The position numbers and the translations under genes are program-made. A stretch of DNA of 64,000 bases from Candidatus Spongiisociaceae bacterium (GTDB lineage: Bacteria; Actinomycetota; Acidimicrobiia; Spongiisociales; Spongiisociaceae), in assembly GCA_965213975.1 (NCBI GenBank), contig OZ243930.1, forward strand, positions 756,321 to 820,320, in the 5' to 3' direction. Under the pieces are notes generated by a model. It searched no databases and was not told the DNA's origin. It saw only the letters and a list, made by a program, of their open reading frames with translations. Positions 1 through 7,230 of this stretch are shown piece by piece. Position 1 is the stretch's first letter, and the number at the start of each line of letters is the position of its first letter.

Positions 1-1084
1 CGGCCAGATTCTCGGCCATCGTCCGACCGGTCACCGTGAGACAATCCCCGTCCACCACGCCGTGGGCTAAGAGCATCCGCAGCACGGCCGGGGTCCCTCC
101 CACCTCGTGCAGGTCCTCCATCACGAAGCGGCCGGAAGGCTTCAAGTCCCCGATGTAGGGGATGCGGGCGCTGGTCCGTTGGAAGTCCTCGAGGTCCAGA
201 TCCACCTCGGCTGAATGGGCCATCGCTAGCAGGTGGAGCACCGCGTTGGTCGAACCGCCCAGCGCCATCGTTATCACCATGGCGTTCTCGAACGCTGTCC
301 GGGTCATGATGTCCCGAGGGCGGATGTCTTCCTCCATGAGACGACGGATGGCGTGACCCGCCTCTCGACACTCGGTCCTCTTGCGGGCGTCGGTAGCGGG
401 AGTAGACGAGCTGTAGGGGAGGCTCATGCCCATCGCCTCGATCGCCGTAGCCATGGTGTTAGCGGTGTACATTCCCCCGCATGCGCCCGCGCCAGGACAG
501 GCGTTACGGACCACATCGAGGCGGTCCTCCTCGCTGAGCCGCCCGGCGATGGTCTCCCCGTAGGACTGGAAGGCCGAAACGATATCGATGGGTTGTCCAG
601 CCCGGTTGCGGCCGGCGCGGATGGTCCCCCCGTAGATCATCAGAGCCGGGCGGTTCATCCGGGCCATGGCCATCACCGCGCCGGGCATGTTCTTGTCGCA
701 TCCCGGTATCGAGATGTTGGCGTCGTACCACTGGGCGCTCATGACCGTCTCGATGGAATCTGCAATAAGGTCGCGCGACTGGAGGGAGAACGACATTCCC
801 TCGGTTCCCATTGACATACCGTCGGAGACACCGATCGTGTTGAATCTCATCCCCACCAAGCCAGCGTCTATGACACCTTCTCGGACCTCGGCGGCGAGGT
901 CGTTCAGGTGCATGTTGCAGCTGTTCCCCTCGTACCACATAGAGGCGATCCCCACCTGTGCCTTCGACATGTCCTCCGCGTCGAGGCCCGCGGCGTAGAG
1001 CATCGCCTGCGAGCCTCCCTGGGCGCGCTCCTGAGTAATTCTTCTGCTGATGCGATTGATGACTGGTTCCATGGGCCGCATCAT
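1..1084 (-). CDS. ilvD: Dihydroxy-acid dehydratase, N-terminal part. The 3-prime end lies beyond the window start.
   Basis: Open on the minus strand from about 1084 to position 1 with no stop, so it is absent from the ORF track. The translation reads [34 protein letters not shown]...[17 protein letters not shown]...[15 protein letters not shown], typical of the IlvD/EDD family including the Cys cluster. Start is either ATG 1084 or ATG 1072. No clear RBS. Confidence 0.85.
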
Positions 1085-1202
1085 AGAAGGAGGAGTGGGT
1101 ACTGCCCCTGACGGTTAGCCTTGCCGCCATGTATCGACGACCCAACCTGGAGCGCTCGGCATCGACGAGAGGGCTTGGTAGACCGGTCTGGTTGAGACCC
1201 TG

Positions 1203-1991
1203 ATGCTGATCGTCAGCGACGTCCACGCCGCCTTCCCCGAGTTGCGCAAGGTTGCGGCATCAGGCGAACCGCTGCTGGTGCTCGGGGACCTCCTCAACTT
1301 CGTGGACTACCGGACCGGTGAAGGGATCGCCTCCAGCCTGTACGGGAAGGACCATGCCGACCGCTTCACTAGGAACCGTAAGGCGGGTAACTGGGCGGCC
1401 AACCGGCGGCTGTGGCGAGAGGCCAACCGGGGGAGAGAGGCGGAGATGGCCCGGTCGGTTGAGGCGGCGGTGCGCCACCAATACCGAATGGCGAGGGAGG
1501 CGATGGCTGGCGCTGAGGCCGTCTACCTAATCCCCGGCAACGTGGACTGGCCGCAGGAGATGGCCGAGGTGCTGGCCGACACTGTCGATCTCGTGGACGG
1601 CGAGGTGGTGGAGATCGAGGGCTACCGGGTGGGGTTTGCCGGGGGAGGCGTCCCGACCCCGGCTGCCGCTAGGGGAGAGATCACCCATCGGGCCATGGCC
1701 GAGAAGCTGGCCGGGCTTGGCCCGGTGGATATTCTCTGCACCCACGTGGCCCCCTCTGTGTCACCGCTGCACCGAGATGTGGTAACCGGACGGCCGGAGA
1801 GGTCCTCGTTGGCGGTGCTTGAGTTTCTCGAGACCAACCAACCCGACTACCACTACTTCGGGGATATCCACCAGCCTCAGGCCCAGGTATGGCGGGTGGG
1901 GAAGACGAAGTGTCGAAACGTGGGCTACTTCCGGGCCACCGCCCGGGCGGTCTACCACGCTCAATCATCACCTCCCCGGTGTAGAGCCTGA
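1203..1991 (+). CDS. Calcineurin-like metallophosphoesterase
   Basis: Motifs LIVSDVH, GNVDWP and GDIHQP. Its stop lies 2 nt before the helicase start, indicating an operon. A start further upstream is possible. Confidence 0.7.
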   Translation: MLIVSDVHAAFPELRKVAASGEPLLVLGDLLNFVDYRTGEGIASSLYGKDHADRFTRNRKAGNWAANRRLWREANRGREAEMARSVEAAVRHQYRMAREAMAGAEAVYLIPGNVDWPQEMAEVLADTVDLVDGEVVEIEGYRVGFAGGGVPTPAAARGEITHRAMAEKLAGLGPVDILCTHVAPSVSPLHRDVVTGRPERSSLAVLEFLETNQPDYHYFGDIHQPQAQVWRVGKTKCRNVGYFRATARAVYHAQSSPPRCRA

Positions 1992-1993
1992 GC

Positions 1994-4588
1994 ATGGCCT
2001 TCCCTGGACCTTCCCGGCTCGGCCGCGGTGCGGTCGTTAACCGGGGCGATGCTGACCCGCTCGGTGCCGAGGAACGGTTCTTGGTCGATGGTGATCTGCT
2101 CTCATCCGACACCCGTATGGCCGAGGTGGTGGACCGGATGCACCGCGCTTGGCAGGACCGTCGTCCGATGCTTGTCGAGTTGGATGTCGAACCCGACGAG
2201 CTTCGTCAGCCGACGGTGGAGGAGCGTCCCCTCTGGACGCTGGGTGCCGATTATTCCCTGTTGAGGGAACGGCTCCACTTTCTGACCTGGGCCAACAACT
2301 GGGACTGTCGGGACGGGACCCCCGTCTGGTGGTGGGGCACCAAGGCGACCGCTCTCGGGGCGGTTCCGGGGGGTGAGGCCGACATTGTCACGGCGAGCGG
2401 GGCCAGTCGATGGGTTGACGGCGGCCCTCGGGGTCTCTTGGATCAGGACGTCGTATCCGCCGAGTCGGTGGAAGCTGGCCCGCGACGCGCCTCCGGTCAC
2501 CAGGTATACGAGCCCGACCTACCCCTGGATCCGGCGCAGCGCGCCGCGATGGAGCACGCCGGTGGCCCGGCTCGGATCATCGCCACTGCTGGGTCGGGCA
2601 AGACCCGTACCCTCCTAGCTCGTATCCGCTACCTCGTGGACCAGGTGGGGGTAGAACCGAGATTGATCACCGCCGTGGCCTACAACCGCCGGGCCGCTGA
2701 CGAGATGAGAGAACGACTCGGTCGCGCGGACCTCCACATCCGCACCATTCATTCCCTTGGTTGGGCCATTATTCGCGAGGCCTTGGGCGACCCGATCCTC
2801 ATGGAGGAGCCGGACGTACGGCGGGAACTGGCCAGGCTGGTACCAACGAGGGGCACCCTGAACAAAGATTTGATTGGTTCCTTTATTGAGGGGTTGTCGG
2901 ACGCGCGACTCGCGCTGGCCGACCCCGATGAAGTGGGTGCCGAGAGGAGCGACCTGCTCGGGTTCTCCCAGGTATTCAGGCGTTACCGATATCGGGCGGC
3001 ACAACGTGACCTAGTTGACCACGACGAACAGGTCTACCGGGCTGCCGAGCTGCTGCTTGCCGATCCCGATCTCCGGGCTCGTTGGCAGGGCCGGTGCCGC
3101 CACCTCCTAGTAGACGAGTTCCAGGATCTCACCCCGGCGTATCTGTTATTACTGCGAATCCTGGCTTCCCCCCGGCTCAACGTCTTCGGGGTCGGCGACG
3201 ATGACCAGACCATCTACGGATACGCCGGGGCCGATCCGAAGTTTCTGGTGGACTTCGACGGGTTCTTCCCCGGCGCGGCCGACTACGCACTGGACACCAA
3301 CTACCGGTCACCGGCCCGGGTGGTACGAGCCGGTGGTCGCCTGGTGGGACACAACCGGGTGAGGGTGGCCAAGAACCTCACCCCCGCGCCCGGCGCGGTC
3401 GATACCCCGGCGGGGTTGAGGGTCCGCCAGCTGCCCGACGCGGAGATCACTAGCGAGACGGTACGACAAGTCCAGAGCTGGCTTGATGCGGGGGTAGCAC
3501 CTAAGGAGATAGCAGTGCTGGCGCGGGTCAACTCCACTCTGCTCCCGGTACTCGTCGGTCTGAGCCACGCCGGGATACCGGTTAGGTCTCGGCTGCATCC
3601 TGGGTTGATGGAGCGTTCGGTGATGCGATCGGCTTTAGCTTGGATTCGGATCGCTCTCGATCCCGTCAGCATGCGGCGATCGGATCTCCTCGAAGCAGTG
3701 CGGCGGCCGTCCCGTGGCCTGAATCAAGTCTCGAGACGCATCCTCGTCTCCCGTCGATACTCTTCCCCGCAGCTGACCAAGTTGGCGGACGGCCTTACTG
3801 AGCGGCAGGCGGAGGCATGGGTCGGTTGGCAGGGCGACTTGGCCGTGGCCGCCCGCCGGGCCGAGACCGGCCAGCCCGGACCGTTGTTGGATTGGATGAT
3901 CAACACCCTGGGCCTCAGCAGGTCCGCCCACCTGCTGGACCGTAACCGCAGCCGCGCGGGCAAACCCGCCCACCGGGACGATCTGGTAGCCCTTCGCCGG
4001 TCTGCATACCTGCTCCACCATCTGCCGACCTTCGAGCAGGAACTCAGAGCGACGATGTCAGCGGGCCGCGGCTCTGTAGGAGGAGTGAGCTTGGCCACCA
4101 TTCACCGGGTCAAGGGTGCCGAATGGGATCGGGTGATCGTCTTCGGGGCGGACCGTGGCTCTATGCCGCATGATCTGGCTACCGACCGCGAGGAGGAACG
4201 GCGAGTTATGTATGTGGCGCTCACCAGAGGGCGGCACCGAGTGACGGTTATGGCCGACGCGGATCGACCGTCACCGTTCCTCGTCGAGATGACAGAAGAT
4301 TCGCAACCTCCCCGACCCCCTGGCGACGCCGAACCCGAGCCTGAATCCCCCGGCTCTGGCGAGAGTGACGACGCGCTGTTTGGCGACCTCAAGGAGTGGC
4401 GTCTGAACCGCTCCAGGAAGCTCGAGTTGCCCGCGTTTATGCTCTTTTCGGACCGAACCCTGCGGGAGATCTCCACACACAAGCCGCGAACTAGCGACGA
4501 TCTGTTGGCAGTAAACGGAGTGGGTCCGGTTAAGTTGGAGCTTTACGGAGAGGAAGTGTTGGAGATCGTCCGTCGGGCCTGTCCCTAG
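1994..4588 (+). CDS. UvrD/Rep-family ATP-dependent DNA helicase with C-terminal HRDC domain (UvrD2-like), carrying a roughly 170-aa N-terminal extension
   Basis: Walker A ATAGSGKTRT, motif II LLVDEFQD, motif III GDDDQTIYGYAGA, motif VI VALTRGRHRV. C-terminal HRDC (LFGDLKEWRLNRSRKLELPAFMLFSDRTLREI...VNGVGPVKLELYGEEVLEIV). The N-terminal roughly 170 aa (WANNWDCRDGTPVWWWGTKA) lie before the canonical LDPAQRAAMEH start of UvrD domain 1A. Confidence 0.85.
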   Translation: MAFPGPSRLGRGAVVNRGDADPLGAEERFLVDGDLLSSDTRMAEVVDRMHRAWQDRRPMLVELDVEPDELRQPTVEERPLWTLGADYSLLRERLHFLTWANNWDCRDGTPVWWWGTKATALGAVPGGEADIVTASGASRWVDGGPRGLLDQDVVSAESVEAGPRRASGHQVYEPDLPLDPAQRAAMEHAGGPARIIATAGSGKTRTLLARIRYLVDQVGVEPRLITAVAYNRRAADEMRERLGRADLHIRTIHSLGWAIIREALGDPILMEEPDVRRELARLVPTRGTLNKDLIGSFIEGLSDARLALADPDEVGAERSDLLGFSQVFRRYRYRAAQRDLVDHDEQVYRAAELLLADPDLRARWQGRCRHLLVDEFQDLTPAYLLLLRILASPRLNVFGVGDDDQTIYGYAGADPKFLVDFDGFFPGAADYALDTNYRSPARVVRAGGRLVGHNRVRVAKNLTPAPGAVDTPAGLRVRQLPDAEITSETVRQVQSWLDAGVAPKEIAVLARVNSTLLPVLVGLSHAGIPVRSRLHPGLMERSVMRSALAWIRIALDPVSMRRSDLLEAVRRPSRGLNQVSRRILVSRRYSSPQLTKLADGLTERQAEAWVGWQGDLAVAARRAETGQPGPLLDWMINTLGLSRSAHLLDRNRSRAGKPAHRDDLVALRRSAYLLHHLPTFEQELRATMSAGRGSVGGVSLATIHRVKGAEWDRVIVFGADRGSMPHDLATDREEERRVMYVALTRGRHRVTVMADADRPSPFLVEMTEDSQPPRPPGDAEPEPESPGSGESDDALFGDLKEWRLNRSRKLELPAFMLFSDRTLREISTHKPRTSDDLLAVNGVGPVKLELYGEEVLEIVRRACP

Positions 4589-4668
4589 GAGGGGCACCAG
4601 TCGCGCCCTCGTCCGGTATAGGGTGGATCACGGATGGCCTTCCTGTAGAGGAGAGATTGAGGTAGAGG

Positions 4669-5103
4669 GTGTCTGAATCGGCATTGTCGGCAATCGAGAT
4701 ACTTGCTACTCCGCGCCGCTGCTTCGAGGTGGTGGCGGATGTGGACTCCTATCCCGAGTGGGCGAGTGGGGTGAGGACGGTGTCCGTGCACGGGAGGGAT
4801 GCGCACGGGAGACCGGAGCGGGTCACGCTGACGGTCGATGCCGTCATCCGGCAGGTGGAGGTGACGGTTCGTTATACCTATGATCCCCCGTACACCATTC
4901 GCTGGACGGGCGAGCCGGGACCCGACATCCTGGAGTTGGACGGTTCATACGAGTTCCGAGCTACGGAACAAGGCACCGAGGTGATCTACATGTTGCGGAT
5001 CTCGCCATCGTTTCAGGTCCCCGGATTCCTGCGCACCTCTGCTGAGAAGCAGCTCATCGGTACCGCGCTACGGGAGCTTCGTCACCGGGTTGAGAACCTC
5101 TAG
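4669..5103 (+). CDS. SRPBCC (polyketide cyclase/dehydrase-like, START fold) family protein
   Basis: 144 aa. GTG start preceded by GGAGAG...GAGG. Sequence pattern of the SRPBCC superfamily (YPEWASGV...). Confidence 0.55.
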   Translation: MSESALSAIEILATPRRCFEVVADVDSYPEWASGVRTVSVHGRDAHGRPERVTLTVDAVIRQVEVTVRYTYDPPYTIRWTGEPGPDILELDGSYEFRATEQGTEVIYMLRISPSFQVPGFLRTSAEKQLIGTALRELRHRVENL

Positions 5104-5140
5104 ATCCCAGCCCGGTGACAAAGGTGGTCTACCCGGCCGC

Positions 5141-5587
5141 CTAGGCAGATTCGATAGCGACAGTCTTGGGGAGCACCTCCGGCTGTTTCCCTACCGTGAC
5201 TTCCAGGATTCCATCCGACAGACGGGCGGACACCGAGTCCCGGTCTGCCGAGTCATCCAGGTTGATGGTCTTGGTGAACTCACCGTCCAGAATCTCCCGA
5301 TGGCGGAAGGTGCTTCCATCCGCCGGGGTGTAGGAGCGGGTGCCCTTCACCGTGAGAACCTTGTCTTCGATAGCGACCTCTAGGTCGGCTAGGGCGTAGC
5401 CCGGTACCGCCATCCGAACTGTGACATCAGCGGAGGACTCCACTACGTCGACGCTGGGTCCGGTCGCCGAGGCTGATACCCGAGACCGGTCTGCCGCCAG
5501 GTGGTCCCATCCGCGGGGAAACCCTCCGAGGAGGGCATCAATCTCGGGGGTGAGCTTGAAGGGTCGGGTTCTTACCAGATGCATCAT
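5141..5587 (-). CDS. Hsp20/alpha-crystallin small heat-shock protein
   Basis: Alpha-crystallin domain (VDVVESSADVTVRMAVPGYALADLEVAIEDKVLTVKGTR...GEFTKTINL). Start trimmed to ATGATG at 5587/5584, which has an AGGAAAGGG RBS. The track ORF extends to 5641. Confidence 0.85.
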   Translation of the reverse strand: MMHLVRTRPFKLTPEIDALLGGFPRGWDHLAADRSRVSASATGPSVDVVESSADVTVRMAVPGYALADLEVAIEDKVLTVKGTRSYTPADGSTFRHREILDGEFTKTINLDDSADRDSVSARLSDGILEVTVGKQPEVLPKTVAIESA

Positions 5588-5789
5588 TTTCCCTTTCCTA
5601 TGGAGGAGGCATTTGATGGTTGTCACTAAATCTAACCCCAATGCACTCAGATTTCTTCCCTACAATTCCTGACATTCATGGCTATTTGGGGATGAGGGGG
5701 GAGTCAGGGCGGGGTTCCGGCGGTTCCTCTCGTGTTTTTCTCTGGTTACGAGCAGAGCGGGGTTGACGAGTTCCCAACACAACTGGGGT

Positions 5790-5806
5790 CCCTACTGGCA
5801 ACTGGC
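5790..5806 (+). repeat. Copy of the conserved intergenic motif CCCTACTGGCAACTGGC, formed by two GGCAACT heptad units
   Basis: Lies 72 nt upstream of the ROK kinase start, in the region divergent from hsp20. Identical 17-mer to the copy at 16516-16532. Confidence 0.6.
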
Positions 5807-5878
5807 CAGCGATCCGGGTAGCGAGCGGAAGCCGTAAGCTAGGTACCCAGTTTCGTTGTCTAATGGAGCAGACGGTCG

Positions 5879-6820
5879 ATGAGCGTTCGGGATGGATTGA
5901 CCATAGGGGTGGATCTTGGGGGGACGAAGATGGCCCTGGCCCAAATCGATGGTCGGGGCAACATCCTCGAGCATGTCACCCTGCCGCGGCCGGCCACGGC
6001 CGCGGAGATGGAGACCCTGCCAGTTGAGGCGAGCCGGAAGCTCATCACCCCGGCGGTCAGGGCTATCGGCGTAGGGGTGGCCGGGCTGGTTGACACCGAT
6101 CGTGGCGTCCTCGTTTGGGGTCCCAACGTAGAAGGGCGCGAGGTCCGCTTCCGGGATATTTTCGAAGAGGAACTGCAGCTTCCGACGGTCGTTGATAACG
6201 ACACCAACGTGGCTGGCCTTGCCGAGGCCAGGGTCGGTGCCGCCCGCGGATATCGCCATGTCTGCATGATCACCTTGGGGACCGGGATCGGCGGGGCTTG
6301 GATCATTGACGGGCGTATCTATCGGGGGCGGGGATTCGCGGGTGAGGTGGGACACATGCCGGTTGATGTCGGCGGCCCTCGCTGCACTTGCGGACAACGC
6401 GGTTGTTGGGAGACGTTTGCCTCGGGGCGGCGGCTTGACCAGATGGCGCGCGACCTGGTGGCATCTCGACCAGGTGGGTTGGTGGCCAAGCTCGCCCGGG
6501 GTGAGTCACCCCGGGGGTGGCACCTCACTCGGGCCGCTACCGAAGGCGATCCTGACGCTCTCGAGAACCTTCAGGAAATGGCTTGGTGGCTGGGGGTGGG
6601 TATAGCTGGGTTGGTGGCGGTCCTCGATCCGGAGATTGTCGTGGTTGGCGGAGGCGTGTCCCATGTGGGTGATCTGTTTCTCGATGCAGCCGCACGGTCG
6701 TTCGGTGCGGCTCTGGAGGGTGCTGACCACCGGGACCCCACTCCCATAGTGTGTGCCGGACTTCAGGAGAACGCCGGAGTCATCGGTGCCGGGCTGGTAG
6801 CGAGGGAGCGACTTCGGTGA
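5879..6820 (+). CDS. ROK-family sugar kinase (glucokinase-like)
   Basis: N-terminal ATPase motif GVDLGGTKM. ROK zinc motif HMPVDVGGPRCTCGQRGCWE. Confidence 0.85.
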   Translation: MSVRDGLTIGVDLGGTKMALAQIDGRGNILEHVTLPRPATAAEMETLPVEASRKLITPAVRAIGVGVAGLVDTDRGVLVWGPNVEGREVRFRDIFEEELQLPTVVDNDTNVAGLAEARVGAARGYRHVCMITLGTGIGGAWIIDGRIYRGRGFAGEVGHMPVDVGGPRCTCGQRGCWETFASGRRLDQMARDLVASRPGGLVAKLARGESPRGWHLTRAATEGDPDALENLQEMAWWLGVGIAGLVAVLDPEIVVVGGGVSHVGDLFLDAAARSFGAALEGADHRDPTPIVCAGLQENAGVIGAGLVARERLR

Positions 6821-7230
6821 ACCACCAAGGCTGGCGACAGGTGCTTTCCGACGAGCGGTTCCGCCTCTTCCTGAGAGAGACAGCTCGGCTGGGTCCCAAT
6901 CTTGCCAAGTTGTTAGCCCGCCTGGCCACCGATCCAAGAGTCTCCTCGCGGGCCAAGTGGTTTGCGGCCGCGGCCGCGGCATACGTCGTGCTCCCCATCG
7001 ATCTGATACCCGACTTCGTCCCTTTAGTAGGCAAGGTAGATGATCTTCTGATAGTTTCGCTGGCGCTTCGCCATGTCATCGAGGAGGCGGGGATGTCGGC
7101 GGTTCTCGAGCACTGGGATGGTCCGGACCGGGTGATCATGGTCATCGCCGACGTGGTCACCGTGGTGTCGGACACCGTCCCTCGTCCCCTTCGCTTGTTG
7201 GTGGGTCGCTATCTGCGGGCCGCCAGCTGA
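6817..7230 (+). CDS. DUF1232 (YkvA-like) membrane protein
   Basis: GTG start overlaps the ROK stop (GTGA). Conserved YVVLPIDLIPDFVPLVGKVDDLLIV motif of DUF1232. Confidence 0.6.
   Translation: MNHQGWRQVLSDERFRLFLRETARLGPNLAKLLARLATDPRVSSRAKWFAAAAAAYVVLPIDLIPDFVPLVGKVDDLLIVSLALRHVIEEAGMSAVLEHWDGPDRVIMVIADVVTVVSDTVPRPLRLLVGRYLRAAS

Follow-up and report, generated by a model that had tools for sequence, protein, structure and literature searches.

A DNA helicase gene that starts two nucleotides behind a gene for a phosphoesterase raises the question whether the two products act together as a unit or whether the helicase, including the long tryptophan-rich extension ahead of its motor, has to be understood on its own. 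The pair is found in a stretch of 64,000 nucleotides from a Candidatus Spongiisociaceae bacterium (contig OZ243930.1, positions 756,321 to 820,320), which is called the window here and provides the coordinates unless a locus name is given. Both open reading frames (ORFs), a small stand-alone metallophosphoesterase (MPE) and a helicase of superfamily 1 (SF1), exist as described in an original prediction made from the sequence: The MPE stop codon TGA occupies positions 1989-1991, the helicase ATG begins at 1994, and the 2-nucleotide gap has the sequence GC. We regard it as fairly likely that the helicase is a vertically inherited housekeeping protein of the UvrD2 type, belonging to the Acidimicrobiia lineage and equipped with an orphan accessory domain, and that the MPE is a chance neighbor. 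The features of the gene pair are the following:

1203..1991, + strand, small stand-alone MPE, 262 amino acids (Pfam Metallophos PF00149, E 1.2e-6, above cut-off)
1994..4588, + strand, UvrD2-like SF1A DNA helicase gene, 864 amino acids plus stop (Pfam and PDB matches)
1994..2488, + strand, orphan N-terminal alpha/beta domain (N-domain), residues 1-165, acidic and Trp-rich (conservation, model and distribution)
2288..2347, + strand, Trp-rich core motif WANNWDCRDGTPVWWWGTKA of the N-domain, residues 99-118 (consensus W[AR]N[NT][WY]DxRxGxP[VI]WWWxxKA)
2489..2524, + strand, short variable linker before domain 1A, residues 166-177 (variable alignment columns; predicted local distance difference test (pLDDT) <50 at residues 162-172)
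2525..4252, + strand, SF1 motor core with domains 1A/1B/2A/2B, residues 178-753 (Pfam, PDB matches and motifs)
4253..4369, + strand, acidic, Pro-rich and Cys-free linker, residues 754-792 (sequence inspection)
4370..4570, + strand, C-terminal HRDC domain, residues 793-859 (PF00570 and a RecQ C-terminal match)

The helicase has the architecture of UvrD2 without its cysteine module

The helicase was predicted to contain all SF1 motifs and a C-terminal HRDC domain, and both are present. Pfam recognized UvrD-helicase at residues 178-425 (3e-44), UvrD_C at residues 697-753 (2e-21) and HRDC (PF00570) at residues 793-859 (6e-19). The motifs follow each other in the expected order, with Q (LDPAQ178), I (GSGKT200), Ia (VAYN228), II (DEFQD374) and III (GDDDQTIY401) in the first half of the series and IV (YRS437), V (TIHRVKGAEW702) and VI (VALTRG741) in the second. 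The best solved relatives are chains of DNA helicase II/UvrD, e.g., 4c2u, which was matched at 3e-55 over residues 177-760. By homology, the protein is presumably an ATP-driven SF1A DNA translocase or helicase with 3'-to-5' polarity, and the HRDC domain would assist in the recognition of DNA or of a partner by analogy to UvrD2 and RecQ. In longer homologs of 960-1090 amino acids (P0020, P0045, P0078, P0082 and P0036), two to three HRDC copies stand in tandem at the C-terminus.

UvrD2 was defined by the combination of a UvrD-like SF1 ATPase, a CxxC-(14)-CxxC tetracysteine (Cys4) module and an HRDC domain (Sinha et al., 2008, as cited in PMC3378886). In the mycobacterial enzyme, the Cys4 module is located between the ATPase and the HRDC domain and is required for unwinding, while it is dispensable for ATPase activity and for viability (PMC3378886). 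UvrD2 is essential in mycobacteria because of a motor function that works without unwinding and is itself still not understood (PMC3378886).

Of these three elements, the window helicase contains the SF1 ATPase and the HRDC domain and lacks the tetracysteine module. It has three Cys residues in total, at positions 105, 368 and 863, and not one of the 120 closest homologs listed (47-62% identity, query coverage mostly 95-100%, length 830-1160 amino acids) contains a CxxC motif. Since cysteines are this scarce and CxxC does not occur in the homologs, the absence of the module, which the original prediction had already noted, is genuine; it was either lost from the Acidimicrobiia-lineage helicase or never present. 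The label "UvrD2-like" is thereby borne out by the ATPase-HRDC architecture and by the NCBI name of the homologs, 'ATP-dependent DNA helicase UvrD2', and fails at the Cys4 module. We take the helicase to work like UvrD2 and to be probably its counterpart in the Acidimicrobiia, representing an architectural variant and not a member of the Cys4 clade.

The N-terminal extension is genuine and as conserved as the motor

The codon-position GC content fits the helicase reading frame from approximately nucleotide 2080 onward and is ambiguous for the first 90 nucleotides. The listed homologs begin with the N-terminus M-x-F-P-G-P-x-x-L-G-R-G-x-V-V in 88 of 120 cases. Because this conserved stretch lies ahead of the internal Met at 2117, the latter was ruled out as the true start and the start of the helicase is placed at 1994. 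The shorter homologs originate from short contigs or frameshifts, as in P0103, in which the WVDGGPR region is read out of frame, and orthologs starting downstream without the extension, the pattern that was to refute the original prediction, are not what is observed.

Trp accounts for 4.5% of residues 1-177 compared to 1.3% in the rest of the helicase. An alignment of 28 sequences contains 16 invariant positions (R56, R93, L94, L97, W99, N101, D104, P110, W112, A118, D130, G136, W140, D142, G144 and P145) and 19 further positions that are nearly invariant, with RLHRAW, ERLHFLVWANNWDxRxGxPVWWWxxKA and WVDGGPR as consensus stretches. The identity to the query is 51% for the whole extension and 57% for residues 45-160, similar to the 53% found for the motor plus HRDC, indicating that the extension is as constrained as the motor. 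In most members, the N-domain is acidic with an isoelectric point of about 5. A structure prediction, which had been suggested as a check of the N-terminus, yielded a confident single alpha/beta domain in AlphaFold2 when run with this alignment (mean pLDDT 83, predicted template modeling score 0.78).

The N-domain represents a new domain confined to this helicase family

The extension had been called a novel module, and all likeness searches agree with this view. Residues 1-177 gave no match in Pfam even at E <= 10, and the N-domain matched nothing in NCBIfam, PHROGs or PADLOC. When its profile was run with hmmsearch against all PDB sequences, the best hit reached E 0.016 over 37 residues of an uncharacterized protein, which is not significant, and a Foldseek search of the PDB with the model returned nothing at E <= 0.001, with a TIR match at a template modeling score of 0.28. 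Two candidate relationships were tried and rejected: A phmmer match to the SH3 domain of PRMT2 among the PDB sequences (E 0.037) failed to reach significance, and this region is helical in the model; an origin as degenerate copy of the RecA-like domain of the helicase itself received an hhalign probability of 0.2%.

An exhaustive HMMER search of 1.84 billion cluster representatives with the N-domain profile retrieved 508 representatives that contain the domain, 389 of them at E <= 1e-10. Among the 150 matches listed, the domain is located at the N-terminus of proteins of 800-1250 amino acids or in fragments. A Pfam scan of ten listed matches, picked mainly because of an internal position of the domain, identified every one of them as this UvrD-type helicase or a fragment thereof. 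The sole credible other architecture, found in two independent cluster representatives (P0170 and P0269), is extended at the front by an Mrr_N winged-helix domain and lacks the HRDC domain. The order in P0170 (L087:395-3130) and P0269 is Mrr_N, a Pro/Ala-rich linker, N-domain and SF1 core without HRDC. P0157 and P0206 were discarded as genuine fusions, as they look like mis-called or frameshifted genes.

The Trp-rich consensus pattern was additionally used to query GTDB, with each species represented by one genome, and 486 species genomes encode relatives of the N-domain. The best 80 of these 486, from which the taxonomy was read, belong almost entirely to the Acidimicrobiia, with a few Nitriliruptorales, 'Actinomycetes' and unclassified Actinomycetota. 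The nearest relatives of the window helicase, with approximately 60% identity, come from sponge-associated Candidatus Spongiisociaceae. No N-domain was detected in the IMG/VR viral contigs or in the phage and plasmid collections. Judged by these sequence and structure comparisons, the N-domain is a new domain without a described family or a solved relative and is confined to this helicase family. Since it has approximately 500 cluster representatives, is missing from Pfam and NCBIfam and has no solved relative, it could reasonably be proposed as a new family entry.

The adjacent phosphoesterase belongs to the Icc-like phosphodiesterases

The original prediction had pointed out that the MPE fold is shared with the nucleases SbcD and Mre11 and had read the two genes as a helicase-nuclease-like pair. 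If this were correct, the MPE and the helicase would form a dedicated repair unit, in which the MPE serves as Mre11/SbcD-like nuclease. The MPE indeed has the fold of the calcineurin-like superfamily and its metal-ligand motifs (DxH, GD, GNxD, H and GxxH), in the form of SDVH (D6, H8), LGDLxN (D29), GNVDWP (N113, D115), CTH (H181) and GDIHQP (D221, H223). It belongs to a family with 1508 matches at E <= 1e-5, typically of 252 amino acids and named "metallophosphoesterase" or "Icc-related predicted phosphoesterase", with SDVH, LGDLxNxxDYRTG, GNVDWP, CTH and GDxHQP as invariant elements. Its structure model has a pLDDT of 92 and consists of a single domain that includes a helical insert of approximately 60 amino acids at residues 42-101, between motifs II and III.

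Searching the PDB sequences with the MPE profile gave no significant match, and the class was assigned from the structure model. The highest structural scores were obtained for the Icc-like proteins aq_1956 (18.9), TT1561 (18.6) and MPPED2 (18.5), followed by PptH (14.9), GpdQ (14.4), Mre11 (14.0 and 13.3), Rv0805 (12.9) and SbcD (12.0 and 11.1). The modeled MPE thus groups with the small Icc/MPPED2/TT1561-like phosphodiesterases. It is only 14-18% identical to aq_1956, TT1561 and MPPED2 (PDB 2yvt, 1uf3 and 3rl3), and in contrast to these its family has an invariant DYRTG of its own after motif II and the helical insert of approximately 60 amino acids. Residues 35-101, which comprise both, mark an uncharacterized subfamily of the Icc-like phosphodiesterases.

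Mre11 and SbcD are characterized by GNH[DE] in motif III and GHxH in motif V. Mre11-like nuclease motifs were not found in the MPE, which instead has GNVD (N113, V114, D115) and GDxH (G220, D221, H223); with 262 amino acids and a single domain, it also lacks the C-terminal capping domain and, as described above, scores lower against the nucleases than against the Icc-like group. No gene similar to Rad50 or SbcC is located within 5 kb. The nearest folds, the sequence of both motifs, the missing capping domain and the missing SbcC/Rad50-like gene all speak against a repair unit.

The gene pair is a local arrangement

The conservation of the gene pairing was analyzed in 80 helicase loci from different species. 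A homolog of the MPE is encoded immediately upstream of the helicase in about 13 of them, and in 63 no MPE is found within 6 kb of the helicase. Nine of the approximately 13 MPE-adjacent loci have SRPBCC, HSP20 and ROK genes all within the retrieved flank. Overall, an MPE accompanies the helicase in about 17 of the 80 loci, all of which belong to the clade sharing SRPBCC/HSP20/ROK. Since the adjacent loci thus largely share the wider neighborhood of the window, the adjacency of the MPE is best described as synteny of the whole neighborhood among close relatives, and the expectation that the pairing would be conserved in orthologs was not confirmed. Helicase clades without MPE have differing neighbors, with subunits of a type II topoisomerase in one case and a GMC oxidoreductase plus a pyridoxal phosphate enzyme in another, and a search across the 80 loci for a gene kept in an operon with the helicase found none.

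Even where both genes are present, their junction is not always maintained. In L005 and L017, an insert of 1.5 kb splits the MPE from the helicase (L005:4443-6001, L017:4532-6001). The insert contains an ORF of 261-287 amino acids that resembles DNA methyltransferases, with DPWYNKG and DPMCGSGTT motifs, and breaks the 2-nucleotide coupling; in L005, it harbors a further ORF of 218 amino acids and may be a small restriction-modification cassette. In L030 and L046 (both 5535-5912), only residues 1-127 of the MPE are detectable upstream of an intact helicase, and the MPE appears truncated or decayed.

The reverse view was taken from six distant MPE loci (L081, L082, L083, L084, L085 and L086), none of which has a helicase beside the MPE. 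In five of the six, an SRPBCC gene follows directly 3' of the MPE. The sixth, L083, encodes a protein of 208 amino acids without Pfam match after the MPE, then an ArsA-like ATPase, and HSP20 and ROK further on. ILVD_EDD genes adjoin the MPE in relatives. The block in L081, L082, L084, L085 and L086 consists of ilvD, sometimes Fer4/HEAT and Zn-ribbon proteins, the MPE, SRPBCC and an ArsA-like ATPase with an HSP20-like tail; it continues with HSP20 in some cases, followed by ROK, DUF1232 and a luciferase-like oxidoreductase. The flanking genes of the pair in the window are the following:

2..1114, - strand, divergent dihydroxy-acid dehydratase (ilvD-like), 5' part, running past the window start (open frame of 371 amino acids, coding, GC content at third codon positions 0.80)
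4669..5103, + strand, SRPBCC (polyketide cyclase/dehydrase-like) gene (Pfam; located directly 3' of the MPE in five of the six more distant relatives)

The window retains the frame of this block at positions 2-7230, with ilvD, MPE, SRPBCC at 4669, HSP20, ROK and DUF1232, and the helicase is placed between the MPE and SRPBCC. The ArsA-like gene is missing from this version of the block. In the simplest reading, the helicase gene would have been relocated into the MPE-SRPBCC block in one family-level clade, consisting of the Spongiisociaceae and relatives. The 2-nucleotide junction reflects co-transcription in the clade of the window and not a conserved functional unit. A repair unit of helicase and nuclease is very improbable in view of the 63 helicase loci without nearby MPE, the four loci with split junction or truncated MPE, the six distant MPE loci without adjoining helicase and the Icc-like nature of the MPE itself. 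The tempting but wrong reading as a "helicase plus Mre11-like nuclease operon" is hereby corrected.

The locus carries no signs of defense or mobility

The second function that had been considered for the pair was defense. At first sight, the helicase could act against phages, together with the MPE or by itself, as a module similar to GajB of the Gabija system or to another UvrD-based system. PADLOC profiles of GajB match the motor core at 7e-56, and the MPE has a weak match to the PADLOC candidate PDC-S10 (2e-6). However, the GajB score of 188 bits corresponds to generic SF1 similarity, as the scores for Rep, PcrA and UvrD are of the same order (190-210 bits), and no GajA-like or other defense partner is adjacent to the helicase. 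Likewise, the absence of the N-domain from PADLOC, PHROGs, viral contigs, phages and plasmids, the presence of the helicase gene in 486 species, its housekeeping neighbors and the uniform GC content speak against this function, and the vertical, near-universal distribution of the helicase within the class argues in the same direction. We therefore give a defense module hardly any credence, and the idea of a dedicated repair or defense unit is not supported: The helicase has no adjacent partner gene, its N-domain is absent from the viral, phage and plasmid collections, and the PADLOC match reflects similarity to UvrD in general. Nothing at the locus points to mobility or defense.

The genes within approximately 5 kb are ilvD, the helicase, SRPBCC, HSP20, ROK, DUF1232, FabD and FabH. 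Genes similar to fabD, fabH and fabF are located near 7-12 kb, and the gene content resembles that of a core chromosome. The GC content is even across the 64 kb (0.59-0.66), and the window contains neither tRNA genes nor Rfam families at the gathering threshold. Long shadow ORFs (504-1226, 1681-2112, 2102-2500 and 3301-4101, all on the - strand, and others) overlap the real genes, either antisense to them or in a different frame. These ORFs are a product of high GC content, have a non-coding codon-position GC pattern and are not genes. Apart from the findings on the helicase N-domain and the MPE, the locus is ordinary housekeeping DNA.

Possible role of the N-domain

The likeliest role of the N-domain is that of a non-catalytic accessory module, for which we see slightly less than an even chance. 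This proposal is based on the observations that the N-domain is exclusive to this motor, is constrained like the motor and is acidic, that it lacks catalytic or NTP-binding signatures, and that it is mutually exclusive with the Cys4 module. Tethered to the N-terminus of domain 1A by a linker of approximately 12 residues, it would dock on the motor or on the 2B domain and thereby gate unwinding or couple ATP hydrolysis to unwinding, as the Cys4 module does in mycobacteria. Alternatively, the N-domain would be the contact site for a protein that directs the helicase to its targets. The low isoelectric point argues against non-specific binding of DNA. It is possible, though rather doubtful, that this undescribed accessory fold functionally replaces the tetracysteine module of UvrD2 from the Actinomycetales, either in the coupling of unwinding or as a tether to the replisome, RNA polymerase or an end-binding protein. 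If true, this would establish a second, deep-branching architectural class of UvrD2 and provide a handle on its essential function in mycobacteria.

Several points weigh against our view of the helicase as a housekeeping UvrD2 with an accessory domain and a chance neighbor. Its presumed orthology to mycobacterial UvrD2 is drawn from the common architecture and from the names in databases. In the clade of the window, the 2-nucleotide junction means that both genes are transcribed together and are probably coupled in translation, so that a locally acquired functional link to the MPE is conceivable. The N-domain model covers the N-terminal region, and docking on the motor is a proposal. In addition, the invariant polar residues R56, R93, N101, D104, D130 and D142, some of which are found at C-terminal ends of predicted strands, form a pattern that would also suit a ligand-binding or catalytic site. 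In this case, the N-domain could be an enzyme or a sensor of small ligands, with a degenerate P-loop-like or Rossmann-like fold and the invariant Asp, Asn and Arg as metal or nucleotide site, and would add a second activity to the helicase, either a nuclease or a nucleotide-dependent switch. Neither Walker A (GxxxxGK[ST]) nor Walker B motifs are present in the N-domain alignment, which is also devoid of a Walker A-type glycine-rich loop, and no nuclease or DNA-binding signature is recognizable in the N-domain. We consider an enzyme or sensor improbable and prefer the accessory module.

Comparison with known SF1 helicases

The window helicase has all SF1 motifs in common with UvrD, PcrA and Rep (PDB 4c2u, 2is1, 1pjr, 1uaa and 9dci), which were matched over residues 177-760 with E values from 1e-39 to 3e-55. 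The C-terminus of UvrD and PcrA is formed by a Tudor-like domain, whereas the window helicase ends with an HRDC domain and begins with the orphan N-domain. Against the equivalog models of UvrD, PcrA and Rep, it reaches approximately 190-210 bits, compared to cut-offs of 911-1144.

With mycobacterial UvrD2 (of the Rv3198c/MSMEG_1952 type), the window helicase shares the SF1 ATPase core, the C-terminal HRDC domain and the phylum Actinomycetota. The two differ in that the window helicase has a Cys-free, acidic and Pro-rich linker at the position of the Cys4 module and an additional conserved domain of approximately 165 amino acids ahead of the ATPase. Furthermore, its family belongs to the Acidimicrobiia/Nitriliruptoria lineage and not to the Actinomycetales, and many members have two to three tandem HRDC domains. 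We found no literature on UvrD2 in Acidimicrobiia. A variant that swaps the Cys4 module for another, equally conserved domain across a sister class shows which parts of the architecture are exchangeable, and the Acidimicrobiia variant offers a comparative route to the partner or to the regulatory mechanism of UvrD2.

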